Positions 18,661 to 50,620 of a DNA stretch of 64,000 bases are shown in pieces (the stretch's first letter is position 1; every line of letters begins with the position of its first letter). The DNA comes from Acidobacteriota bacterium (GTDB taxonomy: Bacteria > Acidobacteriota > Thermoanaerobaculia > UBA5066): the NCBI GenBank assembly GCA_039930645.1, contig JBDTTJ010000001.1, positions 2,554-66,553 of the forward strand, in the 5' to 3' direction. The translations under genes were made by a program, and so were the position numbers. The notes beneath the pieces are model-generated. The model searched no databases. It saw nothing but the letters and a program-made list of their open reading frames with translations, and was not told the DNA's origin.

Positions 18661-20361
18661 ATGGGGCTCGTCTACCTCGCGCACGACCGGAGGACGGGCC
18701 TTCCGGTCGCGATCAAGGTCATGTCCCGTTGGTCGGTGGACGCGGAGCTCCAGGCGCGGTTCCTCAAAGAGAACCGGATCCTGTCCTCGCTGAACCACCG
18801 GAACATCGTGAGGTGCTACGAGATCACGGAGTCCCGCGAGGGAATCCCGTCGATCGTCATGGAGTACGTCGACGGCGTCGACTTCCGCGCGTTCGAGGGC
18901 CGGCCGTACCCCGAGCTCCTGCCGCTCATGATCCAGGCCCTGATGGGCCTTGGCTATCTCCGCGGCCAGAACATCCTGCACCGCGATCTCTCGTCGAACA
19001 ACATCTTCGTCACGCTCGAGAACCAGACGCGTGTGACGAAGATCCTCGACTTCGGAGTCGCGAAGGTCCTCCAGCAGCAGGCTGCGGACGGAGACGTGAA
19101 GACGAGGACGGGGCAATTCCTCGGCAAGTTCGCGTTCGCCTCGCCGGAGCATTTTCGACCGTCGACCGTCGACTGGCGGAGCGACGTGTACTCGCTCGGC
19201 GTCATCTTCCACCGGCTCTTGACGAAAACGCCGCCGATCACCGTGGCACGCAAGGCGAACTACTACGACTGGATGGTGGCGCACCAGAAGGACACCGTGT
19301 TCGAGGTCCTGGCGCCGCCCGGCGTCCCGCCGCTGCCGGAGCCGCTCCGGGCCGTCGTCCAGCGGATGCTGGCCGGGAACCCGGACGACCGCCCGCAGAG
19401 CTACGAGGAGATCATCCACGTGCTCGACCGCGTTCAGCGGGGCCTGCCGCCGGCGCTCGAGCCCGATCCGTTCGACCTCCGCACCCTTCCCCCGCCGGTG
19501 GAAGGGCGAATCGGCTCGTCGGGCAGCGGGAAGCGGTTGTCGATTCCCTCTTCGCCAGCGCGGGCGCCCGCCGCGTGGTCCGCCCCCGCGGCCCCGGAAG
19601 CGGAAAGCCCGTCCGTCGAGGAATCACAGCAAAAAAGGTGGCCCGAGCTCGATGCGCGCGAGCCGCAACACACCGAGCGCTTCCTGCCGCCGCCTTCTCT
19701 CGCCGAACCCGAGATCGCCGGGGAAACGGAGCTCCCCGCCGAGCCACCTCCGCCGGACGACTCCAGAGGCTGGGGGCCTCCTTCCGGGGCGAGTCCGGCG
19801 AGGACGGAATTGCTCCCTCCGCCGGCCTCTGCGGACGCCATGAAAACCGCCACGACCGTGACCTCGGGGAGACCGGACAGGATTCCCCAGGTTCCCGTGT
19901 GGTCGGGAGGCGCGGCAACGGACGAGCCCGGCGGGGCCGCCGGCTCGTCCTCCTCGAGGCTCCTGGAAGAGAAGACAGAGCGGCTCGACGACGTGATCGA
20001 GAAGCTGAGGCAGCAGGCGCTCCTGGAACCTCTCCCTCTGTTGAAGCTGGCGCCGACTCCCGAGGCTCCTCCCGCGCCCGCGCCCGCGCCCACGCCCGTG
20101 CGGCCCGCCTCGCGCGAGCGCGCCCCCGCCGCAGCTCCGCCGCCGACGCCCGGCCGGAGACTCGTCGTCTACGGGGAGGCGAGGCCGGCCGTCGTGGCGC
20201 AGCCGCGCGCGGCGCCGCGTCCGGCGCCGCCAGAGGCGCCGGCGCCCGCTCCGGCCGCGTCGGGGCGGGGGTTCCGCGGGATCGGCATCACGCTGATCGT
20301 CGCTGCCATTGTCGTGCTGTTCGGTGCCATCCTGTGGATCCTCATCTCCGTGCTGAAATGA
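18661..20361 (+). CDS. Hanks-type Ser/Thr protein kinase with Pro/Ala-rich linker and C-terminal TM tail anchor
   Basis: 'HRDLSSNNIFV', 'DFGVAK', 'GKFAFASPE', 'SDVYSLGVIFHRLL'. C-terminal 'IGITLIVAAIVVLFGAILWILISVL' TM. The glycine-loop residues 'ISRVLGEGG' lie upstream of the annotated ATG with no canonical start (see findings). Confidence 0.8.
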   Translation: MGLVYLAHDRRTGLPVAIKVMSRWSVDAELQARFLKENRILSSLNHRNIVRCYEITESREGIPSIVMEYVDGVDFRAFEGRPYPELLPLMIQALMGLGYLRGQNILHRDLSSNNIFVTLENQTRVTKILDFGVAKVLQQQAADGDVKTRTGQFLGKFAFASPEHFRPSTVDWRSDVYSLGVIFHRLLTKTPPITVARKANYYDWMVAHQKDTVFEVLAPPGVPPLPEPLRAVVQRMLAGNPDDRPQSYEEIIHVLDRVQRGLPPALEPDPFDLRTLPPPVEGRIGSSGSGKRLSIPSSPARAPAAWSAPAAPEAESPSVEESQQKRWPELDAREPQHTERFLPPPSLAEPEIAGETELPAEPPPPDDSRGWGPPSGASPARTELLPPPASADAMKTATTVTSGRPDRIPQVPVWSGGAATDEPGGAAGSSSSRLLEEKTERLDDVIEKLRQQALLEPLPLLKLAPTPEAPPAPAPAPTPVRPASRERAPAAAPPPTPGRRLVVYGEARPAVVAQPRAAPRPAPPEAPAPAPAASGRGFRGIGITLIVAAIVVLFGAILWILISVLK

Positions 20362-20371
20362 AGGAGCGGCC

Positions 20372-21010
20372 ATGACCGAGAACCGACCCGGACGTCCCGG
20401 CGACGTCGACGTCACCGCCTCGAGCCCGGCTGCGGGCGGATCGAGGTCCCTGAGAGAGATGCTCTCCGATGCGCGGGGACAGGCGAAGGGCCAGGGCGTG
20501 GTGCAGGGCTCCACCGTCTTCTTCAAGAACCTCGCCGAGTCGATCGGGCACTCGAACCGGAACCTGAAGATCGGGCTGGCCTTCCTGACGGCTGCGTTCG
20601 TCGTCGTGGCGGCGGCGCTGGGCACGCTCGTCTTCCAGGCCTTCCGGAGCCAGGTCGCGACGAAGACGACGCTCGAGAAACAGATCCAGTCCATGGACGC
20701 CTCGACGCGAAAGCAGATCCAGCCGATCCTCGACGCCATGACGGGCCTCGACAAGAAGCTCGCCGAGCAACAGGACGCACAGAGGCGCGAACTGGAAGGC
20801 GTCCGGCAGCTCCTGCAGGCCGACGTCGAGGCGGCCAAGCAGGACGCCGCCGCGGCGCGCAAAGAAGCGGCGGAGCTCCGCGCCTCGCTGAAGGCCGTCG
20901 AAAAATGGGCCGACGAGTTCGGGAAGACTTTCCTCCAGGACCGCAGCAACCTCGACACGCGCCTCAGGCGACTCGAAGGCGCGCCCGCCCCGGCTCCCGC
21001 GACGAAGTGA
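20372..21010 (+). CDS. hypothetical membrane-anchored coiled-coil protein
   Basis: 212 aa. One TM ('IGLAFLTAAFVVVAAALGTLVF') followed by a long heptad-like coiled coil. Sits between the two kinase genes on the same strand. Confidence 0.4.
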   Translation: MTENRPGRPGDVDVTASSPAAGGSRSLREMLSDARGQAKGQGVVQGSTVFFKNLAESIGHSNRNLKIGLAFLTAAFVVVAAALGTLVFQAFRSQVATKTTLEKQIQSMDASTRKQIQPILDAMTGLDKKLAEQQDAQRRELEGVRQLLQADVEAAKQDAAAARKEAAELRASLKAVEKWADEFGKTFLQDRSNLDTRLRRLEGAPAPAPATK

Positions 21011-21023
21011 GCGGCCCCGGCTG

Positions 21024-22181
21024 GTGACGGTGGGCTTCGGACTCGGCCTCGAGGAGGTCGAACTCGGCGCCATGGTGGGCCGGGGCGGCTCGGGCGAGGT
21101 CTTCGCCGCGCGTCATCGCGGGACCGGAGCGCGCCTGGCCGCGAAGGTTTACCCCTTCGACCGGATGGACCCCGAGTTCCGGCCGCGCGAACGCTTCCAT
21201 CGCGAGTGCCGAATCCTCTCGCGGATGGAGCACCCGGCGTTTCCGGCCCTCTACGGCTGCGGCGAGGAAGGGGACGGGTCGACCGGCTGGGCCCTGATGG
21301 AATGGATCGAGGGCGCGCCCCTGACGGCCTTTCGCGCCGCGCCCGTTCACGAGGTCGTTCGCCTCGCCTACGGCGTCGCCTCGGCCCTCGACGCGCTGCA
21401 CGTCCAGGGAATCCTCCACCGCGACATCGCATTCGACAACGTCCTCGTCGAGACGCGGCGCTTCGGCCTCAACCCGCGGCTGATCGACCTCGGCATCGCG
21501 AAGGACATCTCGTCGAACCAGGATCTGACGATGGCGGGGGCGTTTCTCGGGCGTGTTCCGTTTGCCTCGCCCGAGCTCCTGACCGGGGAGGGCGCTGCCG
21601 GGCTCGTCGATCCGCGCAGCGACGTCTTCTCGTTCGGCGTCCTCCTTTACGAGTGGCTCTCGGGGAAGCCGCCGTTCCCGGGCGAGACGCCGGAACGCGT
21701 CATGAAGGCGCAGAAGAAGCGGGCGGCGCCGAAGCTGGAGTTGCGGGAGGGGGCGGGGAAGGCCGACGCCGCCTTGTCTGCGTTCGTCGAGAGCCTCCTG
21801 GAGACCGAGATTGAAAGAAGGCCGGCGTCCGAGGCCGTCGTCAGGCGGCTCGCCGAGCTCCGGAGGACTCACCCGCCTGCGGCCCTGGAGCTCGCGCAGT
21901 CGCCAGCCGGCGTCTACCGGGCGCCCTCTCTCGGGTACGCGCTCCTGCCGAGGCGGTTCGACGCCGCGCCGGCGCTCCGCAGGTTGCGCGCGGTCGCGTT
22001 TCCCGAGCCTCCGCCCCAGCCGGCGGGCGTGGCCACACCGGCGCGCGAGAAGGCCGCGCCCACGGGCATTCCCGCTGGAGTCGCGTCGCGACCGGCATTC
22101 GGTGGGCTTGTCCTCGCCCTCGGGATCCTGGCTTTCGTGGCCGCCTGCGCGCTTGCGGCTTTCCTCGTCTTCAGGCGCTGA
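21024..22181 (+). CDS. Hanks-type Ser/Thr protein kinase, C-terminal TM anchor
   Basis: 'GRGGSGEVFAARH', 'AAKVY', 'ILHRDIAFDNVLV', 'DLGIAKD', 'SDVFSFGVLLYEWLSGKPPF'. C-terminal 'LVLALGILAFVAACALAAFLVF'. GTG start. Confidence 0.75.
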   Translation: MTVGFGLGLEEVELGAMVGRGGSGEVFAARHRGTGARLAAKVYPFDRMDPEFRPRERFHRECRILSRMEHPAFPALYGCGEEGDGSTGWALMEWIEGAPLTAFRAAPVHEVVRLAYGVASALDALHVQGILHRDIAFDNVLVETRRFGLNPRLIDLGIAKDISSNQDLTMAGAFLGRVPFASPELLTGEGAAGLVDPRSDVFSFGVLLYEWLSGKPPFPGETPERVMKAQKKRAAPKLELREGAGKADAALSAFVESLLETEIERRPASEAVVRRLAELRRTHPPAALELAQSPAGVYRAPSLGYALLPRRFDAAPALRRLRAVAFPEPPPQPAGVATPAREKAAPTGIPAGVASRPAFGGLVLALGILAFVAACALAAFLVFRR

Positions 22182-22206
22182 CGATCGCTGGAGCGCCGCC
22201 GCTGCG

Positions 22207-23649
22207 TCAGGCGCCAGCGCCGGGCGGCGGCGCCGGGCGCGGAGCGGGCGGGGGAGCGGCCGCGGCGGGCGCCTTCCCGGGCGGCGCTGACGGGGAGATC
22301 ACGGGCGTCGCCGTCTCCGTGGCGGTCGCCGTTGCGGTGTGCGTCGGGGTCGGCGTCGGCGTATCGGTCGGTGTCGGCGGGTACTCGAGGGGCTGGAGCC
22401 CGCTGAGAGCGGCCGGCGCGCGAAACGCCGGCTCCGCCGGCGCGCGCGCAGGCGGCGGAGAACGACGCGGCGCAGGCGCCGGCTGCGCGGCTCGCTCGGG
22501 GATCTCCGTCCCGCGGGGCGAGGGCGAGAGGGCGGCCGGAAGCGGCGTTGCCGCAGGCGCCGGTCCAGGAGGAGCGGTCGAGGCCGCCGGAGCGCGAGGA
22601 GCGGCAGCAGGCCCGACGGGCGGAGGCGCGGGCCGGCGCAGGAAGACGCCGATCGCCACGAGCGCCGCGACCACGACGAGCCCGGCGGCGCCGATGGCGA
22701 GCCGCCGGCCCGTGCGTGAGCGTGGCTCGATCCCGCCCGCAGGCGCGGAGGCCGCGCCCGCGACGAGCACGCCGCCGCCGTCGGCGGGCGGCGGAGACGG
22801 CGGAGCCGCGGTCTGAGCCGTGGTCTTTCCGAGGCCGAGCCGCGCGGGTGTCCCGCGCGACACGAGCGCGACGGAAACGTTGTCCTTCGTGCCGGCCTCG
22901 AAGGCGAGGCGATAGATCTCTTCGGCCGCCTCCTGAATGCTCCCGGCCGTCTCGAGAGCCGTCAGGAAGCGCTCGGCCTCGAGAACGTCGGTGACGCCGT
23001 CGGTCGTGAGGATGACGACGTCGCCGGGGCCGAGCGTCACGTCGCTCCGCACGTCGGGAACGACCCTCTTCTCCTGGCCGAGACTCCGGGTGAGGGCGTG
23101 GGCGAACGGACTACTCGCATCGTCCTCGGGGGCGACCGAGTCGGAGCCCAGGGCCCGCCGATGCTCGGCGAGGGCGGTGTGATCCACCGAAAGCTGCCGG
23201 ACCTTCAGGCCGGAGGCGAGGAAGATCTTGCTGTCACCGACGTTGGCCACGACGAGGCGGTCGTTCGCGAGCACGAGCGCGAACGCGAGCGTCGCGCCCA
23301 TCCCCTTCCTCTCGACGGACGCCTTCCCCTGCTGGAAGATCTCGCGGTTGACTTCGTCGATCCACGCGCGGATCTCGATCTCGATCGCCGCGGGCGCCAG
23401 GGAGGAAACGTCCGGGCGCGCGGCGAACGCCTGGACCTTCTTCCGGAGGATCTCGACGGTGAGGCGCGACGCGACCTCTCCCGCGTTGTGCCCGCCCATC
23501 CCGTCGCTGAGGACGGCGAACGCCCTGAGGGCGCAGGACGGCGGCAGGACCGCGAGGATTGCGGCATCCTCGTTCGCCTCCCGGCGGCCTTTCTCGGAAA
23601 GGCCGCCCGCGAGGTAGCGAGGCGCCTCCGTGCCGGCGTCGGCGATCAC
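22207..23649 (-). CDS. PP2C-family (PPM) Ser/Thr protein phosphatase with Pro/Ala-rich linker and TM segment
   Basis: 'LSDGMGGHNAGEVAS', 'VVANVGDSKIFL', 'VVILTTDGVTDVL', then a TM 'LAIGAAGLVVVAALVAIGVFL' and a Pro-rich C-terminus. PstP-like architecture. Confidence 0.8.
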   Translation of the reverse strand: MIADAGTEAPRYLAGGLSEKGRREANEDAAILAVLPPSCALRAFAVLSDGMGGHNAGEVASRLTVEILRKKVQAFAARPDVSSLAPAAIEIEIRAWIDEVNREIFQQGKASVERKGMGATLAFALVLANDRLVVANVGDSKIFLASGLKVRQLSVDHTALAEHRRALGSDSVAPEDDASSPFAHALTRSLGQEKRVVPDVRSDVTLGPGDVVILTTDGVTDVLEAERFLTALETAGSIQEAAEEIYRLAFEAGTKDNVSVALVSRGTPARLGLGKTTAQTAAPPSPPPADGGGVLVAGAASAPAGGIEPRSRTGRRLAIGAAGLVVVAALVAIGVFLRRPAPPPVGPAAAPRAPAASTAPPGPAPAATPLPAALSPSPRGTEIPERAAQPAPAPRRSPPPARAPAEPAFRAPAALSGLQPLEYPPTPTDTPTPTPTHTATATATETATPVISPSAPPGKAPAAAAPPPAPRPAPPPGAGA

Positions 23650-23658
23650 CCCTGTCCC

Positions 23659-24453
23659 TCAGTCCTCGCGATACGTCATGACGACGTCGCCAATCTCGAT
23701 GCGGTCGTTGTCGACGAGACGCCGCGAGGCGTTTTCCTCGATCTCCTCGCCGTTGACGCGGGTCGGGTTGGAGCGGGCGTAATTGATCAGCGAGTAGCTC
23801 CGCCTGTCGAAGACGAGCTTCGCGTGCTTGCCCGCGACGGAGGCCGGGAGGAGCTGGATGTGGCGATACGCCGGCCCGGGGTCACGGCCGATCGTCGTCT
23901 CGACACGATCGCCGGGCGCCGTCCGGAAGATATGGAGCTCGACCTGCTGGTCGCCGTCGTCGATGAGGAAGCGCCCCGGAAGGACGTCCAGCGGTCCCGG
24001 CGGCGGAGCGGCCGGCGCTTCCGGGATCGGCGGGGGGGTCGCGGAGCGTGACGGGACGTTGATGACGACGGGCTTCTTCAGGATCACGGTGAGGACGACG
24101 ACGAGGGTCGCGACGAGCACGAGGGCGCCGATCCCGAGGAGGATCACGACGCTCGACGGCAGGCCGCCAGAGGCTTCGGGAACCGCGGACCGTTCCGCCG
24201 GACGCGAGGGGGCGGGCGTCGCCACGGGCGCCGCCGCCGGCTGCCCGGCGGAGGGCGCGGGTGTGGACAGGGGCTCGGCCGCGGGCTGCGCGGCAGCGGG
24301 TGCCGGCGTGGCCGATTCGACTGCCGACGGGAGCGGCGGCAAAGGGGGCAGCGTGGGGATCGGGGTTTGCGCGCGGGCCGCCGACGCCATCAAGAAGGCG
24401 GCGACGACCGTCGCAAACACGACCTGCTTCCTGGAGTTGCGGCCATCTCGCAT
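23659..24453 (-). CDS. membrane protein with cleavable/anchor N-terminus, central TM helix and C-terminal FHA domain (FhaB/FipA-like)
   Basis: 264 aa. N-terminal 'VVFATVVAAFLMASAARA', Pro/Ala-rich spacer, TM 'VVILLGIGALVLVATLVVVLTVIL', then FHA motifs 'TTIGRDPGP...', 'SVAGKHAKLV', 'NGEEIE', 'IEIGDVVMTY'. Confidence 0.7.
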   Translation of the reverse strand: MRDGRNSRKQVVFATVVAAFLMASAARAQTPIPTLPPLPPLPSAVESATPAPAAAQPAAEPLSTPAPSAGQPAAAPVATPAPSRPAERSAVPEASGGLPSSVVILLGIGALVLVATLVVVLTVILKKPVVINVPSRSATPPPIPEAPAAPPPGPLDVLPGRFLIDDGDQQVELHIFRTAPGDRVETTIGRDPGPAYRHIQLLPASVAGKHAKLVFDRRSYSLINYARSNPTRVNGEEIEENASRRLVDNDRIEIGDVVMTYRED

Positions 24454-24494: not shown

Positions 24495-25307
24495 TCACGC
24501 CGTTTTCACGGACGGTAGCCGGACCGTGAGGAAGTGCTCGAGGTCCGGGCGGTCTTCGGGGCGCGGGGACAAGCCGAGCCGCACGAGCTCCCTCGGCACG
24601 TCGGTCTCGACGGACGACCGGCGTGGGAACGGGAGGGCCGACAGGGCGACGGTCTTGTCGGCGTCCTCCACGGGCGAGGGGCCGGGGACGTGTCCCTCGA
24701 GAAGCACGTGAACCTGGGCGGCCAGGCGGTAGACGAGCGCCGCGCGCCGCGATCCGCCCGGCGACCCGGAGCGGCTTTCCGGGGCCAGAAAGGGCGCCCC
24801 CTCCTCCTGCGCTTCGAGTCCGGCGAGCGGGGTCGATCCGTCGTCCCGGCACGGCTCGCAGAGGAACTCGTTCAGCGGCAGGTGCCTCGCCTCGAGGCGA
24901 GCTCCTTCGCGCAGGCGCTGGAGCTCGTGGAGGGGCAGGTGGAGGCCCGCGAAGCCACATTCGAGAGCCGCGATCTGCAGCTCGGCCAGAGCGGTCATCG
25001 TGCCTCGTCGCGTCCGATGGCCTCCGCCCGCGACCGGCTCGGAGGTCTGAAACGTGATGTACGTCCGCCCGGTCACCGCCGCCGAACCGAAGTCGAGGAC
25101 GCGCGGAAGCAGCGGATGGTCGAAGTGGGCCGTGGCCGTGTAGAGCGCGTCCACCACCATCGCGGTGCGGCTCGACGACGAGTCGTAGCCGTCGACGCGG
25201 ATCCACGCCGCGGCGCCGTCCGCCTCGCGAACCGCGCGGTAACGGAAGGGGATGCCCGTCTCCTCGGGCCCATCCAGCAGCCTGTACCCCGGAATCCACG
25301 AAGGCAT
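24495..25307 (-). CDS. hypothetical protein with degenerate protein-kinase N-lobe-like segment (possible pseudokinase)
   Basis: 'YRLLDGPEETGIPFRYRAVREADGAAAWIRV' resembles a Gly-loop/beta3 region. 'HPLLPRVLDFG' resembles subdomain IV. No HRD or DFG motifs. Heads the FHA-PP2C operon. Confidence 0.3.
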   Translation of the reverse strand: MPSWIPGYRLLDGPEETGIPFRYRAVREADGAAAWIRVDGYDSSSSRTAMVVDALYTATAHFDHPLLPRVLDFGSAAVTGRTYITFQTSEPVAGGGHRTRRGTMTALAELQIAALECGFAGLHLPLHELQRLREGARLEARHLPLNEFLCEPCRDDGSTPLAGLEAQEEGAPFLAPESRSGSPGGSRRAALVYRLAAQVHVLLEGHVPGPSPVEDADKTVALSALPFPRRSSVETDVPRELVRLGLSPRPEDRPDLEHFLTVRLPSVKTA

Positions 25308-25415: not shown

Positions 25416-26162
25416 ATGGACCACGTGAACGTCCGCGTTGCAATGAAGGTCTGGGGCGACGACGTCGAGATGGAGATGACCCTACCCGCGGGACCGGCAC
25501 GGCCCGAGTTCCTCCTGCCGGTCTTCCAGCGGATGGCGGACGGCTTCGTCGGCCTCGCCGAGAAGCGTGCGGGCGCCGAGGGTCGGACCGTCTCCTGCCG
25601 GAAGGGGTGCGGCGCGTGCTGCCGCCAGCTCGTCCCGATCGGGGAGGACGAGGCGCGGCGGATCCGCCAGCTCGTGGAAGACCTTCCCGAGCCGCGACGG
25701 GGGGAGATCCGCGCGCGTTTCGCGCGGGCCCGCGAGCGCCTGTCCGAGACGGGGCTGCTCTCGAAGCTCGAGAACCGGGGGAACTTCGCGGAGAGCGAAG
25801 TCCTCTCGTTCGGCCTCACGTACTTCCACCTCGGCATCGCGTGCCCGTTTCTCGAAGAGGAGAGCTGCTCCATCCATGCCAGCCGCCCGATCAGCTGCCG
25901 CGAGTACCTCGTCACGTCTCCGGCCGCGAACTGCGCCGACCCGAAGCCGGGAGCCATCGAGTTGGTCGAGATGCCCGCAAAGGTCTGGACGGCGGTGGCG
26001 CGTGCGGTCTCGGTGGACCCGCCCACGCGCTTCATCCCGTGGGTCCCTCTCATCCTCGCGCCGGACTGGGCGTCGACGCATCCCGACGAGTCGGAGCCGC
26101 GACCCGTCGAGGACGTGTTCCGGGGCGTCTTCGCCGAGTTGGCGGGCCGGAAAGGCGCGTGA
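25416..26162 (+). CDS. YkgJ/UPF0153-family putative Fe/Zn-binding protein (CxxCxxCC motif)
   Basis: 248 aa. 'CRKGCGACCRQLVPI' plus downstream Cys residues ('CPFLEEESCSIHASRPISCREY'). Confidence 0.55.
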   Translation: MDHVNVRVAMKVWGDDVEMEMTLPAGPARPEFLLPVFQRMADGFVGLAEKRAGAEGRTVSCRKGCGACCRQLVPIGEDEARRIRQLVEDLPEPRRGEIRARFARARERLSETGLLSKLENRGNFAESEVLSFGLTYFHLGIACPFLEEESCSIHASRPISCREYLVTSPAANCADPKPGAIELVEMPAKVWTAVARAVSVDPPTRFIPWVPLILAPDWASTHPDESEPRPVEDVFRGVFAELAGRKGA

Positions 26163-26244
26163 AAGCGCGTCAAGCCGGGCGGACGGACCCCATGGATTAC
26201 AATTCGACAGATTCAGACGGTTTGAGCGCTCCGTCGCGCCGCCC

Positions 26245-27321
26245 TTGGCGAGCCGGAGGTTTCGAAGGAGAAGGAATCTGGCGCGGAAACGTGAAACCGG
26301 GTCTGCTCCCAGGGAGGACCGCAAGGCTCCGGCGACGCCGAAGGCTGCCGTTCCGCAGGCGGGCGTCCCGCAGATTCCCGACGAGCAGCCCGTCACCCTC
26401 GCCCGCCTGCGCCACTATCGAAAGCTGACGAAGGCGGTGTCGGCGCACCTGCGTGCGCAGCTCGAGACGATTCTCGGGACGCTGACCCCCCTCTTCCATG
26501 CCGAGACCGTTTTCGGCGACTACGTGCAGCGAAGCATCCTGTCCGCGAAGCCCGAGACCGAAGCGGGCCCGCGCGCACAGCTCGCTCCGGACCGGTGGGG
26601 CCGCGGGTCGGAGCTGGCCGTCAAGCGGGACGCGGCGGCCCCTCCGACGGTGAAAGAGCTCGAGGACGCGCGGAGATACGCGAAGTCCAACATCTCCATC
26701 AAGGAAGCCATCAAGGGAGCCGATCGCGCGTTCCACGACGTCGAGAGCCTCTACGACTCCGTCGCGAAAAAGAGGCCGTACGATCTCGGCCTCGGCCTGA
26801 CCCCGCCTCTCGCGATCAACACGTCGTCTCTCGAGATCCTCCCGCTGGACTATCCGTATGTCGCCCGCTCGGAGCGGCAGACGAAACGCGTCATGGTGAC
26901 GGCCCCGATGACGTGGATCGTGACGTACGGGGGGTTCTCCCTCGCGCGCCTCCGCGCCCTCATCGCGGACCCGAACCGCTCGCGCGACGAGCTCCAGCGC
27001 GTCCTGACGCACCATCTCCTGCTGCACGTCATTCTGGAGCGCAAGAGCGGGCTCCGGGGCCTCCTCCACGCGCTGAACTTCCCCGTCCGGACCGAGACGC
27101 TGCCGGAGTTCGGTGAGCTGCCGCTGACGGTCATCACGTCGGCGGTGAAGACCGAGCGCCCTTCCGACGCGGTCATCCTGGAAAGCACCGATCTCTCGGG
27201 CGTCGACGCGACCGAGGAGATCGTGCGCGTGACGAACGTCGCCGGCATGGTCGACGGGCGCCGCGCGCGATTGCTCGAAATCGTCGAGGCCGAGAAGTCC
27301 GGCGCAAACGGAGACGCCTGA
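26245..27321 (+). CDS. hypothetical protein, paralogue A of a tandem pair. Start uncertain (TTG), with a basic low-complexity N-extension
   Basis: About 40% identity over roughly 250 aa with the next gene (motif strings in findings). No canonical start where the homology begins. Confidence 0.45.
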   Translation: MASRRFRRRRNLARKRETGSAPREDRKAPATPKAAVPQAGVPQIPDEQPVTLARLRHYRKLTKAVSAHLRAQLETILGTLTPLFHAETVFGDYVQRSILSAKPETEAGPRAQLAPDRWGRGSELAVKRDAAAPPTVKELEDARRYAKSNISIKEAIKGADRAFHDVESLYDSVAKKRPYDLGLGLTPPLAINTSSLEILPLDYPYVARSERQTKRVMVTAPMTWIVTYGGFSLARLRALIADPNRSRDELQRVLTHHLLLHVILERKSGLRGLLHALNFPVRTETLPEFGELPLTVITSAVKTERPSDAVILESTDLSGVDATEEIVRVTNVAGMVDGRRARLLEIVEAEKSGANGDA

Positions 27322-27354
27322 GCGTCCCGCGGCCGAACGGAGGATTCAACTCAG

Positions 27355-28131
27355 ATGGACGAAGGGTTCGATCTCCAGAAACTCCGGTCGCTCCGGAAGC
27401 TGACGCGGGCGATCGCGGAATCGCTCCGCTCGGAGCTGAAGGAGCATCTGGGCACGATGACGCTCCTGCTCCGCCCGCGCACGATTCTGGGCGATTTTGT
27501 AGAGGGAGGCCTCAAGGGTGAAGTCAAGGGCTCGGACACCGCCTTCCGCGACCTCCGCAGCCGTTACGAGGTGGTTGCGGGAGGGCGCCCCTATGGACTC
27601 TCGAAGGAGCTGAGTCATCCCATCGAGATCGTCAGCTCGAACGTCGAACTCGTTCCTCTCGAGTATCCGCACGTTGCGAAGGCCGGATCGGAGAGCAAGA
27701 CCGTCACCGTGACGCAGCCGCTCAAGTGGATCCTCACGTACTCGGGTCTCGCGCCAACGCGCCTGAGAGACCTCCTGGCCGCCAAGACCCCTGACGCGGC
27801 CCAGGTGAAGGACGTGATCCTGCATGCGCTGGTCCTCGACACCGTCCTCACGAGGCAGCCGGGCCTTCTCGCGGTCTTCGAAGCTCTTCGTTTTCCGATC
27901 GTCACGGAGAAGCTTCCGGGCCTCGGGGAGCTCCCGGTCACGTGCATTTCCTCGAGCGTACGGACGGTGCGGCCGCCGGACGACGTCCTCATCGAGAGCA
28001 CGGAGATCTCGGGTCTGAATGCGTTCGAGGAGGTCGTGAACGCCAAGGACATCGTGGAGATGCAGGACCCCTTCCGCGAGAAACTCCTCGAGGTCATCCG
28101 CGAGAACGCCCCGGAAGCGCTGAAGGGCTGA
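27355..28131 (+). CDS. hypothetical protein, paralogue B of the tandem pair
   Basis: 258 aa. ATG with a GGAGGA RBS. Homologous to the preceding gene. Confidence 0.55.
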   Translation: MDEGFDLQKLRSLRKLTRAIAESLRSELKEHLGTMTLLLRPRTILGDFVEGGLKGEVKGSDTAFRDLRSRYEVVAGGRPYGLSKELSHPIEIVSSNVELVPLEYPHVAKAGSESKTVTVTQPLKWILTYSGLAPTRLRDLLAAKTPDAAQVKDVILHALVLDTVLTRQPGLLAVFEALRFPIVTEKLPGLGELPVTCISSSVRTVRPPDDVLIESTEISGLNAFEEVVNAKDIVEMQDPFREKLLEVIRENAPEALKG

Positions 28132-28134
28132 CCT

Positions 28135-28956
28135 CTAGACGCCGGCGTCGCGGATGGCGGGTCCCGCGTCCATCCCTTGGCCGGTTCTCAGCGCCTGCGG
28201 AGCCGGTCGGGTCATGACCGCGGTCCAGCCACCGAAGCCGGTGTGATACCGGATCCGGTTCCGCCAGGGCCACGAGTGCCAGTGTTCCACTCGGCTTCCC
28301 AGGCCCATGAGGTCGCCTCGCTGCCACTCCTTTTCCCCGTAGCACATCACCGCGTTGCCGTCCCCCGAGCACCGCGCGCTGGCGCGGTTGACGTGCGAGA
28401 GGCCCAGGAGGTGGCCGATCTCGTGCAGCGCCGTCTCCTGAAAGTGGGCCTCCGGCTTCCCGGGTTGCGGCACGAAGACCTGGGGTGTCGTGTCGTCGGA
28501 GTCCAGCTCGCCGAGTCGTGTCTCGCGCCCCATGTCCGAACGGATTCGCTGTCCGGGCACAGGGTTGATGCAGTTGATGCCGATGCGGGCGTGCTCGGGC
28601 CGGTCGTGCAGCCAGAGCGTGAGCCCGCACTTCACGTTCGGCCGGTGGGTCGGATGGGAGTCCGGCCAGTCGAGGTCGCTGAAGCCGCGCGGCGGGACGA
28701 GCCAGAACCGGTCCCGGAAGAAGCCTCGGACGTCCCTGTAGAACGAGCGGCGGAACTCTTCCCACTGATAATCCTCCCACCGGAGGATCTGCACCACGGC
28801 GCCCGTTGCGTCCGCGTAAAGGCCGGTGGAATCCGGCTCGACGCGGTTGAGGTAGATGCTCAGGATGAAGTTGAGATCGGCGTTGCGGCCCGCGCTGCGC
28901 GCGGCCGCGTAGAGGTGCGAGTCGAGCACGGGTCCCCGGATCCATTCGCGCACCAT
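28135..28956 (-). CDS. metzincin-type zinc metallopeptidase (matrixin-like HExxHxxGxxH), no signal peptide
   Basis: 'ALHEIGHLLGLSHV' and a Met-turn candidate 'AVMCY'. The N-terminus is not hydrophobic. Confidence 0.55.
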   Translation of the reverse strand: MVREWIRGPVLDSHLYAAARSAGRNADLNFILSIYLNRVEPDSTGLYADATGAVVQILRWEDYQWEEFRRSFYRDVRGFFRDRFWLVPPRGFSDLDWPDSHPTHRPNVKCGLTLWLHDRPEHARIGINCINPVPGQRIRSDMGRETRLGELDSDDTTPQVFVPQPGKPEAHFQETALHEIGHLLGLSHVNRASARCSGDGNAVMCYGEKEWQRGDLMGLGSRVEHWHSWPWRNRIRYHTGFGGWTAVMTRPAPQALRTGQGMDAGPAIRDAGV

Positions 28957-29002: not shown

Positions 29003-30562
29003 TCAGCCCTCCAGCAGGGCGAGCCGGCCCACGCGCTCAAAGTTCAGCGCGATTCCCTTCTCGACGTCCGCAGCAAGAGCCGCATTCGCGGGGTCACTCT
29101 CCCGGAGGGCCGTCGCCATCTCCGCCGCGATCGTCGCGCGATCGCGGGTGCCGTCGAGCAGAAGGAGAAACGTCCGCACGATGGGATCCTCCAGCTGGAC
29201 CTCCTGGTGCCGAAGGTTCGTCACTGGCACGCGCGACCGCGCCTGGTGCCGCGCGAGGGCGCTCACGCGAGGGCGTTCCGAGACCCTCGTGACGAAGGGG
29301 CTCGAAGAGCTTCGAAGCTCGATCACGTTCGCGCCGTAGGAGGCGAGCAGGAAGCGAAGCAGCCGCGTCTCGTCCTCGGCCGTTGCGAATTGGCCTCCGG
29401 CCGCCAGGACGCGCGCGCGGGCGGCGGCGAAAAGTTCGGGAACCGGGACCCAGCTCGGCCAGATCGTCCCGAGCTCGAGATAGGCGGCCTTCGAGAGAGG
29501 GTGCCGCGTCGTCACCTCTGCGTTGCGGTCGGTCACGAAGCAGGTCGGCGCGTCCGAGGCGGCGTCGGAGTCCTGGGATTTCGGCCGTGTGCTCGCGCCG
29601 ACGTACAGGGAGCGAAGGACTTCGGGATCGGGCGAGGCCGAGAGAGAAACGTCTTCGCGGCAGAGAAGTGTCTGCCGAAAACGGCGGAAGATCAGGAAAT
29701 CTCGGTACTGCTGCTGCAGGATGATGTTCTCGGCCCCCACCGCGAGCATGAAACGGCCGGCCGGGCTGTCGGCGTCCCAGACGGCCATGTCGCAGTAGTC
29801 GGCTTCCGACAGGAACCTGAGCCGGTGCCGGCGCGCGCGCTCGATGAAGTCGACGAACAGGAGGGGTTCGTTGATCTCGGCGAGGTCGTCGTGGAACAGC
29901 ACCGCGTCCAGCTGCTTCTTTTGGTGTTCGAGCGTCTCGTTCAGGATTGCCGAGAAGACCGGCCGCGGCGGCGCGGCCTCCGAGAGAAAGTGGATGAATC
30001 CCCGCGCCTGCCTGATCTTCTCGGCGGTGTCCTCGACGTCCCGCACGTGCCAGCGCATCATCTGACGCATCGCGTTGCGGACATGGCAGCCGGGCAGCGC
30101 GTTGTAGCTCACGTACGCGACGCCGTTCGGAGCGAGCGCCTCGGAGGCGAGCGCGAGCACGCGCTCCTGGACTGCCGGCGGGACCCACGAGTAGAGGCCG
30201 TGCGCGATGACGTAGTCGAACGTGCCGAGAGCCGAGACGTCCAGGAGGTCGGCGTGACGGAGCGCCACGTTCGTGAGGTCGAGAGCCGCGATCTGCGCGC
30301 GGCCGTCCTCGACGGCCGAGCCCGCCGCGTCAATGCCGAGGAAAGTGCTCCCCGGGAGGGCATAGGCCATCGGGATCAGGTTGCCGCCGTTGCCGCATCC
30401 CAGCTCGAGCACGCGACAGCGTTCGGGCGGAGCGGGCCTGAGGCCGTGAAGCGCCGCAATCGTCGCGAGGCGATCCGGATGGGTCTGCGGGAACGCGGAC
30501 CCCGGATACGTGACCGTGTCGTATGGAGTCGGTTCCTTTTCGGACATGTGAGAGGCAATCAT
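29003..30562 (-). CDS. class I SAM-dependent methyltransferase with C-terminal methyltransferase-regulatory domain
   Basis: 'VLELGCGNGGNLIPMA' (motif I), 'DYVIAHGLYSWV'. C-terminal region about 300 aa. Confidence 0.65.
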   Translation of the reverse strand: MIASHMSEKEPTPYDTVTYPGSAFPQTHPDRLATIAALHGLRPAPPERCRVLELGCGNGGNLIPMAYALPGSTFLGIDAAGSAVEDGRAQIAALDLTNVALRHADLLDVSALGTFDYVIAHGLYSWVPPAVQERVLALASEALAPNGVAYVSYNALPGCHVRNAMRQMMRWHVRDVEDTAEKIRQARGFIHFLSEAAPPRPVFSAILNETLEHQKKQLDAVLFHDDLAEINEPLLFVDFIERARRHRLRFLSEADYCDMAVWDADSPAGRFMLAVGAENIILQQQYRDFLIFRRFRQTLLCREDVSLSASPDPEVLRSLYVGASTRPKSQDSDAASDAPTCFVTDRNAEVTTRHPLSKAAYLELGTIWPSWVPVPELFAAARARVLAAGGQFATAEDETRLLRFLLASYGANVIELRSSSSPFVTRVSERPRVSALARHQARSRVPVTNLRHQEVQLEDPIVRTFLLLLDGTRDRATIAAEMATALRESDPANAALAADVEKGIALNFERVGRLALLEG

Positions 30563-30623: not shown

Positions 30624-32123
30624 ATGTCCAAACGCCCGCCGTCCGGCAACGTCGACGTGAGGCTGGGAAGCGGAACCCAGGCGTCGGGGGAGCCGCTCGA
30701 TCCCGAAATGCCGTTTCGTCTGCTCGTGCTCGGCGACTTCGGCGGCGCCGGCAGTTCCCCGCTCGCGACACTCAGACTGCATGCCATCGATCGGGACGTC
30801 CTCGAAGAGGAGCTCGAAGGTCTCCAGGCAGCGATGGACGTGCCCCTCGGCGGAGGCCAAACCGCGAAGATCACACTCCGCGATCTCGACGACTTCCACC
30901 CGGACCGCCTCCTCGAGCGCGTCGACGCCCTCACGGACTTGCGCAAGACGCGCGCGCGGCTCGAGAACCCCGCGACGTTTCGCGAGGCGGCGGGCGAGGT
31001 GCGCGGGTGGGCCGGTCCTCCTCCGGCGCGACGCGAGGGAGCCGCGGCCACGGCGCCCGCCAGTGCGGAGGACGACGTCGTGGGCGAGCTCCTCGCGGGG
31101 GCCTCGCGGCGGGCGAAGGCCGCGGATTCCGCGTTCGAGGACGAGCTGAAGGCGATCGTCCGGCCCCATCTCGCCCCGGAGGAGGACGCCGACCTCCCCC
31201 GTCTGAAGGAGGCGGTGGACGAGGCGCGCGCGGGGCTGCTCCGCGCGATCCTTCGCAGCCCCCGATTCCGGGAGCTCGAAGCCGCGTGGCGCACTCTCGA
31301 CCTGCTCGTGCGCCGGGTCGGGGACGAGTCCGTTCGCGTCTTTTTCCTCGACGTGTCGCGCGCGGCGCTCGTCGAGGACATCTCGAGTCACGAGAAGCTC
31401 TCCGGCACGGGTCTCTACCGGCGCCTGGTGACCGAGACGCTCGGCACGCCGGGTGCGGAGCCGTGGGGCGCCGTCCTCGGGCTCTACGACTTCGGTCCGA
31501 CGCTCGCCGACGCGGCGCTGCTGTCGCGCATCGCCAAGATCGCCCAGGCGGCCGGGGCTCCCTTCCTCGCGGGCGCGCGGCCGGATCTCGTCGGGTGTGC
31601 ATCCCTCGCCGGGACACCGGACCCAGACGACTGGAAGAAGTCCGAGGACGACGGAGCGATCATCTGGGAGGAGCTCCGCGTCCTGCCCGAAACCAGCTGG
31701 GTTGCGCTCGCCCTGCCGCGCCTCATGTTGCGCCTCCCGTACGGCGCGAAGACCGATCCGATCGATGCCTTTCCGTTCGAAGAAATCCCGGATGCTCCGG
31801 ACCACGACGCTTACCTCTGGGGGAATGCGGCCGTCGCGTGCGCCCTCGTCCTCACGCGTGCGTTCGAGCTGGGAGGGTGGGACCTCAAGCCCGAGACGGC
31901 GGCCGAAATCCGGGGTCTGCCCGCGCACGTCTTCAAGGACGGTCTCGAAACGCGGGTCACTCCCCCGTCGGAGGTCGTCCTGACTCTCCGAGCCGCGGAG
32001 AGGATCCTCGAGGCCGGGCTCGTTCCCGTTCTGTCGCTCAAGGGCAGCGAGAGCGTGCGCGTCGCGCGCCTCCAGCCGATCGCGAGCCCCCTCCGCGCCC
32101 TCGCCGGGAGATGGCTGCGCTGA
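30624..32123 (+). CDS. TssB-TssC fusion-like sheath paralogue (single-chain, truncated)
   Basis: The N-terminal ~150 aa align with TssB/VipA of this same cluster ('PFRLLVLGDFGG...IDRDVLEE...DDFHPDRLLERVDAL' against 'PFVVGVLGDFSG...IDRDNFDQ...TDFEPDQVVQQVEPL'). Residues ~220-470 align with the TssC core ('LPRLMLRLPYGAKTDPIDAFPFEE...YLWGNAAVACALVLTRAFELGGW...GLPAHVF' against 'LPHTLMRLPYGKDTNPVESFNFEE...YLWGNAAYSYGTRLTEAFALYNW...GLPAHTF'). Confidence 0.6.
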   Translation: MSKRPPSGNVDVRLGSGTQASGEPLDPEMPFRLLVLGDFGGAGSSPLATLRLHAIDRDVLEEELEGLQAAMDVPLGGGQTAKITLRDLDDFHPDRLLERVDALTDLRKTRARLENPATFREAAGEVRGWAGPPPARREGAAATAPASAEDDVVGELLAGASRRAKAADSAFEDELKAIVRPHLAPEEDADLPRLKEAVDEARAGLLRAILRSPRFRELEAAWRTLDLLVRRVGDESVRVFFLDVSRAALVEDISSHEKLSGTGLYRRLVTETLGTPGAEPWGAVLGLYDFGPTLADAALLSRIAKIAQAAGAPFLAGARPDLVGCASLAGTPDPDDWKKSEDDGAIIWEELRVLPETSWVALALPRLMLRLPYGAKTDPIDAFPFEEIPDAPDHDAYLWGNAAVACALVLTRAFELGGWDLKPETAAEIRGLPAHVFKDGLETRVTPPSEVVLTLRAAERILEAGLVPVLSLKGSESVRVARLQPIASPLRALAGRWLR

Positions 32124-32720: not shown

Positions 32721-33983
32721 CTAGTACGGCTCCCGGACGGCCGAGTGGCTCGCCGCACCCTGCGGGAAGACCTCGAGGTCCGGAGGACGGCCCTTCCAGC
32801 TCCCGTCGAGCGTGCCTCTCAAGCGCGCCTCCCAGAGAGATTCGCGGTCGAGCACGGCGAGCGCGTCGGGGGAAGGCCCTCGTGACACGTCGTGGCCGCG
32901 GCACCAGCGTGTTCCCCTCGCGGCATCCGGGCGCCGCTTCTCCCACGCCGCGCGCGCCTTCCGTTCGTCGGGCAACGGCATCTCGTCGAGGAATTCGGCC
33001 TCGAACGCGTCGGGCTCCTTTCCGTCCGCGGGCGGGACGACCGTGCGGCGGCCCGAGTCGACGTCCTCTCCGGTGATCTTCGTGAATGCCTGCCCGGCGA
33101 ACGCGGACGCCGCGAGGTCGAGTCCACCCATGGCGTGGAGGAGAGTCTCGACCCCGGCGGGATGGCCGAGGACGCCGAGGACCCGGTAGCGCTCGGGGCC
33201 GCTTCCGACGTCCTTCACCCACGCGAGGACACGCTCGAGATCTGCCGCGTCTCCCGTCGCCGCGACGAGGTACATGGAGTCCGCGTCCGCGCCGCCCGCC
33301 CCCCTCCGGCCGCGGCGGACGTCCTCGAGCGCCCAGGTCTGCCGACACCAGAGCGCCGCCTCCCGCGCGGCGGCGCGCACCCAGGCGTCCGGGTCCGAGA
33401 GGCCGCGCTCCCAGAGAGCCCGGCTCTGGGGAAGTGCGGCGAGGCTCACGACACGCCACGCCCTGCGCCGGACGACGGGCTCATCCGACGCGAGCCACGC
33501 CTCCTGGGCGCGGCTGTCGGGCGCCAGGCGGCCGCGCAGCGCGAGCGCCTCGGCGGCGGCGACGGAGCGCATCGGCGGCGCGGCGGTCACGGCTTGCTGC
33601 AGGCGCGAAAGCAGAGCATCGGCCGGGCCGTGGGCGAACGCCTCCGCCAGCCCGTCGGCGCGTGGACCCGACACGGAGGCGAAGGCCTCCCAGACGCGGT
33701 CCACGCTGCCCGGAATCCTCGAGCGCAGGAGGCCGAAGCCGGCGGCGAAGGCGGCGTCGGCGTCGTCCCCTTCCAGGCCCGGACGGACGAACGCGTCCAG
33801 CTCGTCGCCGGCGATCAAGAGACCCTGAAGATGCGCCTCGATCCGCTTTTCGAGCCGCGCGAGATCCCGGGGCATGAAACGCGGCGACCGCAGCGCCCCG
33901 CGGCGCTGCCCCCACAGGAACGCGAGCTCCTCGAAGTGCTCCTCGACGAGGTCGGGCAGGAACTTCAGCGAAGCGTCGGTCAT
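32721..33983 (-). CDS. HEAT/PBS-lyase-like repeat protein
   Basis: 420 aa. Repeated 'DxDAWVRAAAREAAL'-type HEAT units such as 'SDEPVVRRRAWRVVSL' and 'SDPDAWVRAAAREAALW'. Confidence 0.45.
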   Translation of the reverse strand: MTDASLKFLPDLVEEHFEELAFLWGQRRGALRSPRFMPRDLARLEKRIEAHLQGLLIAGDELDAFVRPGLEGDDADAAFAAGFGLLRSRIPGSVDRVWEAFASVSGPRADGLAEAFAHGPADALLSRLQQAVTAAPPMRSVAAAEALALRGRLAPDSRAQEAWLASDEPVVRRRAWRVVSLAALPQSRALWERGLSDPDAWVRAAAREAALWCRQTWALEDVRRGRRGAGGADADSMYLVAATGDAADLERVLAWVKDVGSGPERYRVLGVLGHPAGVETLLHAMGGLDLAASAFAGQAFTKITGEDVDSGRRTVVPPADGKEPDAFEAEFLDEMPLPDERKARAAWEKRRPDAARGTRWCRGHDVSRGPSPDALAVLDRESLWEARLRGTLDGSWKGRPPDLEVFPQGAASHSAVREPY

Positions 33984-34002: not shown

Positions 34003-34434
34003 TCAATTGAGGGAGACGGCCCCGCCCTTGATGCGGTTCATGCGTTTGGCGTGCGACACGAGGTCCTTCCCCTTGATCAGGATTTTCCCGTCGGCGCGAA
34101 TCGTGATCGAGCCGTCGCCGACCCGGAGGACAAGGCCTTTGCGAGCCTCGATCACGAGCGTGTCGGGAATCTCTTTCGGGGGCACGGGATCTGCGCTCGG
34201 GCCGATCCGGCCGAGGACGACGCCGTCGTCGGGGCGTCCTGCGGGCAACCAGACGAGGACCCGATCGCCGACGGCCAGCCCGACCGGGACGTCGGCGGTC
34301 TGCAGTTGGCTGCATTCCGTCACGGAATTGGTCGTGCCCTCCAGTGCGACGAGGAGTCGTCCGTCGCCACGAATCTCCATGATCCTGCCGAGCACGCCTG
34401 CGGAGACGGTGAATGTGGGCGTCTCCGTCTTCAT
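34003..34434 (-). CDS. small gp5/VgrG-tip-like protein ('mini-spike')
   Basis: 143 aa. The C-terminus 'GDGSITIRADGKILIKGKDLVSHAKRMNRIKGGAVSLN' parallels the VgrG C-terminus of this locus ('GDASITLKKDGTIQIKGKDITISG...'). The N-terminus is OB-fold-like. Confidence 0.4.
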   Translation of the reverse strand: MKTETPTFTVSAGVLGRIMEIRGDGRLLVALEGTTNSVTECSQLQTADVPVGLAVGDRVLVWLPAGRPDDGVVLGRIGPSADPVPPKEIPDTLVIEARKGLVLRVGDGSITIRADGKILIKGKDLVSHAKRMNRIKGGAVSLN

Positions 34435-35387
34435 CGTTCCTCCTTCTTGGACTCCATCCCGTCGGAGACTACGACGACCGCCGAGCTCGACGCCGAAAGC
34501 AGCGTCTTTCGATCGATGACCGTCGCGCGGAGCGTGGACGTTCCGGCCGTCTTGCCAGAGAATCGGAAGACGTTGGCATCTTCATGGGCGAGGCTGAGCC
34601 GGTCGTCCGGATCTTCGACCTTGAAGAAGACCGCGTCGGGTTGCTTCGACGCCAGTCGGACCGTGACGCGAGCCTCGTCGCCCACGTGAAGCCGTGACGG
34701 GTCCACGACCAGCTCGGCGATGCGCGGGATTTCCGAGGCGACCGTTCCAAGGTGGCTCTCCATCTGTCTCTGAAGGTCCCGCGCGAAGACGAGAAGATCG
34801 ACCCCGCTGTCATCGGCGTCGACGGAAACGCAGACGTTCGCGTAGACCCAGATGAGGGTGGGAACCTTCGGATTCACGTGGGTGATCGCCAGGTCGCCCA
34901 GACCCGTCGGCCCCGCGACATAGGGGATGTCGACCGTCATCGTTCGGCCGGCCAGCTCCACGAGGCGCTCGCGCGCCGTCCGCGATCCGGAACTCGACAC
35001 ATGAATTTCGACCGTGAAGGTGCCGCGGTCGTTCCGCGCCTTCTGGACGCGATACCCCTCGCCCGGAGCGTCGGACGTGACGAAGTCCACGAGGCGGCGC
35101 CAGCCGCCGTCTCGCAGCCCGGCGCCGGTCTCGAGGTCGGGCCATTCGAAGACGACGTCACCGCGGCCCCCCCCTCCGGACGCGAGGAGCTCGAAGCCGA
35201 TGGCCTTCTTGAAACGCTCTACCCGGCTTTCTTCTCCCATCGCCTTCCTTTCCGGAGTCAGGGCGCAGCCCGGTGCGCCGAGCAAACCGACCGCGAGGAC
35301 GAGCGCGAGCCTAGACGACGTCGCGGACTCCGGCGCACCACTGCATGTCCTCCACGCGCCCCGGCCGCAAGTTCTGGTAGGCGGCAT
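34431..35387 (-). CDS. putative lipoprotein/periplasmic protein. Candidate immunity protein
   Basis: Hydrophobic 'LALVLAVGLLGAPGCA' segment after a 26-aa basic N-region. The annotated ATG overlaps the upstream gene by 77 nt, so the start is uncertain. Confidence 0.4.
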   Translation of the reverse strand: MPPTRTCGRGAWRTCSGAPESATSSRLALVLAVGLLGAPGCALTPERKAMGEESRVERFKKAIGFELLASGGGGRGDVVFEWPDLETGAGLRDGGWRRLVDFVTSDAPGEGYRVQKARNDRGTFTVEIHVSSSGSRTARERLVELAGRTMTVDIPYVAGPTGLGDLAITHVNPKVPTLIWVYANVCVSVDADDSGVDLLVFARDLQRQMESHLGTVASEIPRIAELVVDPSRLHVGDEARVTVRLASKQPDAVFFKVEDPDDRLSLAHEDANVFRFSGKTAGTSTLRATVIDRKTLLSASSSAVVVVSDGMESKKEER

Positions 35388-47298: not shown

Positions 47299-47359
47299 TG
47301 CGTTGGCGGGGCGGGAGCCGGGCCGGCGATGAATCGCCGGCCCTTGGCCGTCCCGTCTC

Positions 47360-50497: not shown

Positions 50498-50620
50498 CGC
50501 GACAATTTCCTCCGGTCAGAGAGAGACGCTTATGCCATTCGAAGGGCAACAGTTAGAATGCTGAAGGATAGCGACGGCGCGGACCCCGGTCAAGAGCCGG
50601 TCGAGGAGCAAGGAGAAGCC
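50498..50620. promoter_or_regulatory. divergent intergenic region between tssA (main T6SS operon, minus) and tagJ (plus). Expected promoter region
   Basis: 123 nt, relatively AT-rich for this genome. No conserved promoter motif could be assigned by eye. Confidence 0.25.

Follow-up and report, generated by a model that had tools for sequence, protein, structure and literature searches.

We analysed a 64,000-nucleotide stretch of genomic DNA from an Acidobacteriota bacterium (hereafter the window; G+C content ~70%) in which three co-oriented genes lie upstream of a type VI secretion system (T6SS) cluster. The first encodes a YkgJ-like CxxCxxCC protein of 248 aa (PF03692; 25416–26162, + strand). 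It is followed by a conserved non-coding leader (26163–26277, +), defined by the alignment of 15 orthologous regions, and by the genes for two proteins that we call A (26278–27321, +; 347 aa when read from a CTG codon, 358 aa if read from TTG 26245) and B (27355–28131, +; 258 aa, with GGAGG ~10 nt 5′ of its ATG). A first-pass annotation of this DNA had treated the three genes as one module, placed between Ser/Thr signalling genes and the T6SS. We find instead that B belongs to a large protein family that is very likely T6SS-associated, and that A is a lineage-specific duplicate of it.

Paralogues A and B

A and B had been proposed to be paralogues that cannot be placed in any known family, and both statements held. 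BLASTP aligned the open reading frames (ORFs) 26245–27321 and 27355–28131 with 107 identities over 296 positions (36%; 55% positives; E 5e-62). All motif strings quoted in the first-pass annotation fall within this alignment, whose single 42-residue gap corresponds to an insertion in A. Searched as single sequences and as a 72-member profile, the two proteins gave no match in Pfam, NCBIfam, PADLOC or the PDB sequences. Neither they nor their 72 relatives had a Pfam or NCBIfam match, the T6SS core families TssA–TssM included. Comparison by hhalign with profiles of every protein of the T6SS cluster gave a probability of at most 1.2%. Foldseek returned no significant fold match for the B model against the PDB (best E 0.12), the A model against the PDB (0.28) or the B model against BFVD (0.18), and structures of the T6SS or of phage tails were not matched by either protein. 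The hhalign result and the lack of Foldseek matches to sheath proteins led us to reject the idea that B is a diverged T6SS part, or the source of the domain that is absent from a sheath fusion protein described below.

AlphaFold2 (AF2) predicted B as a confident single-domain alpha/beta protein (pLDDT 90.7, pTM 0.86). The model of A has a B-like core with pLDDT above 90 and two low-confidence segments, residues 1–35 and residues 88–142, the latter containing one helix; A thus carries a basic N-terminal tail that is disordered and an insertion of ~42–55 aa that is largely so. No signal peptide, transmembrane segment, toxin domain or adaptor domain was found in B. We conclude that B is a soluble, cytosolic alpha/beta protein of ~255 aa and represents an undescribed T6SS-associated family; the open-access literature yielded no description of this family, of the sheath fusion or of the YkgJ/methyltransferase pairing reported below.

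The B protein of the window is identical to a hypothetical protein from a metagenome bin of the Acidobacteriota; the relatives closest to it carry the label Thermoanaerobaculia. Homologues numbered 231 at 90% clustering, all ~250–265 aa long and all named hypothetical, and an exhaustive profile search extended the family to at least 524 clusters at 50% identity (371 with E < 1e-10). Ten residues, R14, T17, Y104, P122, P194, T204, D209, G220, E225 and E226, are invariant in 72 B-family sequences. A-type orthologues exist only in close relatives of the window (Thermoanaerobaculia), at 66% identity or more, which marks A as a lineage-specific duplicate; B is the ancestral form of the family. On one short contig (L090, 1–1338), a kinase N-terminus with its G-loop is followed by an out-of-frame jump to the kinase C-lobe and then by an in-frame B domain, an ambiguous arrangement that reflects either the fusion of B to a decayed kinase or an artefact of assembly.

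The first-pass annotation had noted that A carries an unusual N-terminal extension, that no canonical start codon occurs where homology begins and that ATG 26192 opens another frame. All of this is correct, the out-of-frame ORF ending at 26428. The frameshift that it suspected at 26.15–26.30 kb can be ruled out: the same layout is conserved at 15 orthologous loci, and for this reason A is judged to be an intact gene, neither frameshifted nor a pseudogene. Public gene calls start A at differing places, giving lengths of 291–390 aa. We aligned the 15 loci from the stop codon of the YkgJ-like gene to the first conserved residues of A. Upstream of ~26240 they differ by indels of 1–2 nt that keep no frame, and this stretch is therefore non-coding; one locus (L017) has a 1-nt deletion within the Shine-Dalgarno block GGAAGGAG. 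From CTG 26278 on, all indels are multiples of three (3, 15, 27 and 33 nt), and substitutions between the window and L005 fall mostly at third codon positions of frame 1. This CTG does not vary among the loci and stands 7 nt after a GAAGGAG (26264–26270) that is likewise invariant. TTG 26245, by comparison, is found only in the window and L010 and is mostly CTG or absent elsewhere. GTG 26291 and ATG 26192 are out of frame and were discarded as starts of A, as was the position at which L005 has a GTG, which is ATT in the window and a non-start codon in most orthologues. CTG 26278 is probably the start of A.

Three blocks between 26163 and 26300 are completely identical in the 15 loci: GGATTACAATTC, GAAGGAG and CTGGCTCGGAAACGTGAAACCGGGTC. 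The first (26194–26205) overlaps ATG 26192 and contains a −10-like TACAAT; a strict sigma-70 promoter scan of the leader found no site. CTGGCTCGGAAACGTGAAACCGGGTC shows no variation, third codon positions included, and can fold into a 7-bp hairpin (GGCUCGG-N10-CCGGGUC) that takes in the CTG start; the 15 aligned loci contain no compensatory changes or covariation for this hairpin. Its invariance and the hairpin over the CTG together suggest that the start of A is regulated at translation. On the simplest reading, the conserved leader holds a promoter element and a strong ribosome-binding site, and the CTG behind it serves as a non-canonical start.

Genomic context of the B family and its partners

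We surveyed the context of B by scanning one genome per species with two peptide patterns typical of Acidobacteria, which yielded 80 loci (L numbers denote loci of this and of the other searches), 67 of which were left for context counts once the close clade and duplicates had been removed. Loci were searched with the window proteins and iterated profiles; because the T6SS marker profiles were seeded from the window, they may have overlooked distant T6SS genes. Taxonomic range refers to the 80 loci, the set of 524 clusters carrying no taxonomy. Almost all loci are from Acidobacteriota (Thermoanaerobaculia, Blastocatellia, Pyrinomonadaceae, Vicinamibacterales, Terriglobia, Bryobacterales and Holophagales), and three are Planctomycetota bins. 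One of the loci (L071) belongs to a Luteitalea bin, and a published table of sheath proteins (PMC9230969) indicates a T6SS in Luteitalea pratensis DSM 100886.

Of the non-redundant distant loci, 42 span at least 15 kb; 33 of these have a T6SS marker within 10 kb of B, and 29 have two or more. Loci in which any T6SS marker was present also number 42; the marker closest to B was downstream of it in 38 and convergent with it in 30, at a median distance of 2.8 kb. B typically sits just beyond the VgrG, PAAR and effector genes at one edge of the cluster, for instance ahead of VgrG, ClpV, TssG and TssF genes on the opposite strand (L033, L037, L043 and L046). Genomic linkage to T6SS core genes in divergent lineages is one mark of Tag-type accessory genes, and the B family displays it; its association with the T6SS is very likely.

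Besides the YkgJ-like gene treated below, two kinds of partner recur next to B. A kinase domain is encoded within 3 kb upstream in 14 of 58 loci, 12 of them with the two genes head-to-head at a distance of 100–1650 bp (11 under 1 kb), and a head-to-head kinase also accompanies a very distant member of the family (P0310/L091). The other partner is a fused TssB–TssC sheath paralogue. Its gene follows B directly and in the same orientation in seven loci (L003, L032, L033, L035, L055, L061 and L075), which come from at least four groups with separate labels; the gap is 25–50 nt where this was checked (L003, L033, L055 and L061). The fusion gene is close to B in L078, L082 and L086 as well, and in the close clade the methyltransferase gene sits between the two.

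In the window, the fusion gene (30624–32123, +) encodes 499 aa, comprising a TssB-like part (residues 22–149; PF05591, E 5.9e-10) and the middle of TssC (~36–340 of TssC; PF05943, E 6e-61). Missing are the first ~35–70 residues of TssC, which we take to hold the ClpV-binding helix, and the C-terminal VipB_2 (gp25-like) domain. The protein has no PF18945 match, unlike the canonical TssC (47360–48844), and scores 194.6 against TIGR03355, below the cut-off of 271.5. It resembles the canonical TssB/TssC (VipA/VipB) sheath in aligning over its whole length to PDB structures of HsiB1 and TssC (5n8n, 5urw and 4uqz), and differs from it in that the two chains are fused and the ends of TssC are lacking. 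A complete TssB/TssC pair coexists with it in the window. The fusion family comprises at least 541 clusters in several phyla, including Methylomirabilis and Phycisphaerae bins; we saw it also in L087–L089, as in L003, L032 and L033, sometimes between ClpV and VgrG, and found no account of such a fusion in the literature. An obligatory pairing of B with the fusion was rejected, as each occurs without the other.

The YkgJ-like protein was correctly assigned in the first-pass annotation: it scores 33.8 bits against PF03692 (gathering score 23; E 5.7e-8) and has eight cysteines (C61, C65, C68, C69, C143, C151, C161 and C173) that are invariant in seven relatives down to 37% identity, in the motifs SC-xx-GCGACCRQ and CPFL..ESCSI..RP.SCRE, which correspond to the family's Cys clusters C-x3-C-x2-CC and CPF..C..C. 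The YkgJ/UPF0153 family includes the flagellin lysine methylase FliB; the window protein had no NCBIfam match at E up to 1, FliB included. It shares with that family the above-threshold Pfam match and the Cys motifs. What sets its subfamily apart is that it is often embedded in T6SS clusters and paired with a PKMT-like methyltransferase, a context that we found in no paper. The methyltransferase of the window (29003–30562, −; 519 aa) combines an S-adenosylmethionine (SAM)-dependent methyltransferase domain (PF08242/PF13649, E 4e-14) with a PF10119 regulatory domain (E 8e-18) and a PF21782 winged helix (E 1.2e-13). In metagenome contigs, T6SS markers accompany this YkgJ-like subfamily on 12 of 35 stretches of at least 6 kb, frequently in the order TagJ, YkgJ, PKMT-like methyltransferase, TssF, TssG, ClpV, and the two genes are neighbours within T6SS operons in ten loci (L099, L101, L103, L106, L111, L112, L123, L141, L145 and L146). 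Being T6SS-embedded elsewhere, they form an accessory pair that is independent of B, and their pairing hints at T6SS-linked protein methylation. Tandem amplification was seen for both: three methyltransferase copies stand in a row in L013 (11967–16655) and L110 (2904–7950), and up to six YkgJ-like matches in L169.

These data do not bear out the view of YkgJ, A and B as a conserved triad. B alone is widespread, and A is found only in the close clade; the YkgJ-like gene adjoins B there and in L033, L061 and L135, and lies ~4 kb away within the T6SS cluster in L057. Nor is the module simply a neighbour of the secretion system: in unrelated lineages B, the YkgJ-like subfamily and the methyltransferase each have a T6SS linkage of their own.

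Other genes of the window

The position of the three genes between a kinase/PP2C/FHA group and the T6SS, stated in the first-pass annotation, was confirmed. The signalling group consists of two Ser/Thr kinases with NCBIfam kinase matches (18661–20361 and 21024–22181, both +) that flank an unknown protein (20372–21010, +), a PP2C phosphatase (22207–23649, −) and a membrane FHA protein (23659 to about 24450, −). Pfam identified PP2C, FHA and Pkinase domains in the syntenic proteins of L005 and L006, which the window genes match at 72–91% (tblastn). The order of these genes (18661–24450) is the same in all close relatives.

Between this group and the YkgJ-like gene, and head-to-head with the YkgJ–A–B genes, lies a gene for a 270-aa protein (24495–25307, −) that is conserved only in the close clade and has no Pfam match. 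Compared by hhalign with an alignment of B-adjacent kinases, it gave P 2.6e-4 and a probability of 42% over 188 colinear columns. HPxxxxxxDxG, APE and the subdomain IX/XI positions match those of kinases; the HRD and DFG positions and the ATP-binding lysine are not conserved. By these features it is a probable degenerate pseudokinase. One bin labelled Acidithiobacillales (L019) has the full synteny of this gene, YkgJ, A, B and the methyltransferase at 56–75% identity to the window, and its proteobacterial label is probably a binning error rather than a sign of gene transfer.

On the other side of B, a metzincin-like protein (28135–28956, −; HEIGHLLGLSH, weak Peptidase_M10 match) separates B from the methyltransferase; among the fetched loci this gene is present only in the window and L015. 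Between the sheath fusion and the PAAR-like, DUF2169 and VgrG genes is a region (ORFs 32721–33983, 34431–36456, 36469–36855 and 37925–38938, all −) with a TIGR02270-family protein and two unknown proteins, which are probably effector-loading or effector genes. A TIGR02270-like gene is near B in L007, L010, L011, L016, L051, L053, L085, L086 and L090 as well. The canonical T6SS cluster (36469–62630, mostly −; Pfam matches) encodes PAAR-like, DUF2169, VgrG, ClpV, TssG, TssF, TssE, TssC, TssB, TssA (49388–50497), TagJ (50558–51433, +), two Hcp, TagF, TssM, TssL, TssK and Fha (FHA domain at 60780–62630). TssB and TssE were identified in the ORF translations by characteristic sequences, without a profile scan. 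In the longest TssF ORF (44960–47152, −), ~112 residues precede the TssF profile, and the ORF overlaps the TssE frame (46816–47709, −); the real start of TssF is probably internal, at MRSDLLEYYE.

Possible role in the T6SS

The recognised T6SS core of the window is complete and A and B have no profile similarity to it, so they are additions to the machine, not replacements of its parts. They are probably regulators within the T6SS rather than a separate system, and the best reading of YkgJ, A, B and the methyltransferase is that they form a regulatory and modification wing of the cluster. A regulatory role for B is likely; any specific mechanism is speculative, and we infer regulation of the T6SS by A and B, the involvement of phosphorylation and the choice of target. 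The recurrent kinase and sheath-fusion neighbours point to post-translational control of sheath assembly, and we consider it moderately probable that B acts in such control of T6SS assembly together with a Ser/Thr kinase and with the sheath or the sheath fusion. Of the signalling or redox link proposed in the first-pass annotation, the signalling part is retained, both by position and as the best reading, and the redox part, for which the Cys motif of PF03692 is the only pointer, is not.

Such control might work as follows. B, expressed from its own short transcription unit beyond the VgrG, effector and PAAR genes and mostly convergent with them, would work with a Ser/Thr kinase of the Hanks type, whose gene stands head-to-head with that of B in many lineages; the probable pseudokinase and the nearby kinase/PP2C/FHA set would be the equivalent of this partner in the window. 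The target of B would be the sheath, or the truncated TssB–TssC fusion that is often co-transcribed directly downstream. As Thr17 and Thr204 are invariant, B could be a substrate of the kinase or an adaptor for it; another possibility is a sensor function by which B sets the activity of the kinase. A is a recent duplicate with newly gained disordered basic segments, and its translation probably begins at a non-canonical CTG. A second T6SS-linked accessory pair, possibly for protein modification, consists of the YkgJ-like protein and the PKMT-like methyltransferase; in this lineage it has been joined with B.

Several points weigh against this proposal. A and B have no informative homology, and the invariant threonines are possibly structural, T17 lying in a predicted helix, which is an atypical phospho-acceptor site. 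In nine of the 42 long distant loci, the 10 kb around B contain no T6SS marker. Some T6SS clusters, in Methylomirabilis-type and other loci, have the sheath fusion and no B. A kinase is present at only about a quarter of loci and the fusion at about a sixth, so neither partner is obligatory for B. Almost all sequences come from metagenome bins, and both the taxonomic range and the context statistics are biased because the scan used two patterns typical of Acidobacteria.

A more specific version of the proposal, in which B and the TssB–TssC fusion form a device that controls the length or the firing of the sheath, is in our view unlikely to be right as it stands. The C-terminal domain of TssC contributes inter-subunit 'handshake' strands, and a fusion that lacks it could therefore cap or nucleate a sheath but not extend it. 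The fusion would do so, and Ser/Thr phosphorylation, possibly together with lysine methylation by the YkgJ/PKMT-like pair, would decide whether B holds the fusion or lets it go. If true, T6SS regulation would have a further, new layer in which a sheath subunit has been domesticated and is combined with a protein of new fold.

It is similarly doubtful that B acts upstream of the kinase, as a sensor of a small molecule or other signal rather than as a substrate or a partner of the sheath. Some proteins with H-NOX or V4R domains exert such control over partner kinases, and Bet3/TRAPPC3, H-NOX and V4R share one fold. These small ligand-binding alpha/beta domains (Bet3/TRAPPC3, H-NOX and the V4R domain of MopR/PoxR) are the only families that recur, as weak top matches, in the fold searches with both A and B, and the head-to-head arrangement with a kinase resembles sensor–kinase gene pairs. 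However, the matches are far from significant (E ≥ 0.12, probability ≤ 0.11, TM-score ≤ 0.19), B is larger than these domains, no ligand-binding residues can be named in it and most loci have no adjacent kinase. An equally improbable role for B is one within the VgrG/PAAR island beside it, as an adaptor or chaperone for effector loading or as a conserved effector or immunity protein. The nearest T6SS genes are usually those for VgrG, PAAR-like or DUF2169 proteins, a CHAP/cysteine-peptidase protein that is a probable effector is encoded immediately downstream of B in 11 loci, and one B member has a noise-level match to the adaptor family DUF4123. Yet B is convergent with the effector genes rather than co-oriented, keeps 40–55% identity across classes while the neighbouring effectors change completely, and lies beside core genes with no effector between them in L042, L046 and L057; this conservation and orientation, with the absence of secretion, toxin or adaptor features noted above, argue against an effector, immunity or adaptor function.

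That B is a transcriptional regulator of the T6SS cluster we regard as very unlikely. Its gene is a single-gene unit at the cluster boundary that shares divergent promoters with the kinase, and its conserved N-terminal helix LRKLTRAI is basic; Pfam and the fold search, however, found no helix-turn-helix or other DNA-binding domain in B, and its coupling in an operon with a sheath-like structural protein is better explained by a protein partner. Hardly credible, finally, is a self-contained signalling or redox system of YkgJ, A and B that is near the T6SS by chance. The three genes are adjacent and co-oriented in the window and in all close relatives, and PF03692 proteins carry a metal-binding Cys motif, but only one clade has the triad, B elsewhere stands as a rule without YkgJ or A, and the context survey, in which B and the YkgJ-like subfamily are independently T6SS-linked, contradicts it.

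Post-translational control of T6SS assembly by B and a kinase, as favoured here, would be analogous to, and not homologous with, the threonine phosphorylation pathway of the H1-T6SS of Pseudomonas aeruginosa, which comprises the kinase PpkA, the phosphatase PppA, Fha1, TagQRST and TagF. Like that pathway, the window combines Hanks-type kinase, PP2C and FHA proteins and accessory proteins with a T6SS, and the B family is repeatedly paired with a Hanks-type kinase. By contrast, A and B show no relation to TagF in profile comparison and match no Fha or TagQRST model, the direct neighbour in the window is a probable pseudokinase rather than an active kinase, and the suggested place of B in a pathway comes from its gene neighbourhood. 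B also resembles the TagJ/ImpE and TssA families in being a soluble cytoplasmic T6SS accessory protein, often co-transcribed with a sheath-derived one; the window already encodes TagJ and TssA, however, and in profile comparison B resembles neither.

To our knowledge, T6SS biology rests almost wholly on Proteobacteria and Bacteroidota. For the Acidobacteriota, which are abundant in soil, our analysis adds a T6SS-linked protein family without a recognisable fold that is paired with Ser/Thr kinases and a sheath fusion, and a YkgJ-like/PKMT-like methyltransferase pair embedded in core T6SS operons. It also gives hundreds of 'hypothetical proteins' a concrete annotation label. If A, B and their partners regulate assembly, they would offer new handles on the control of firing and on possible protein methylation in a secretion machine.

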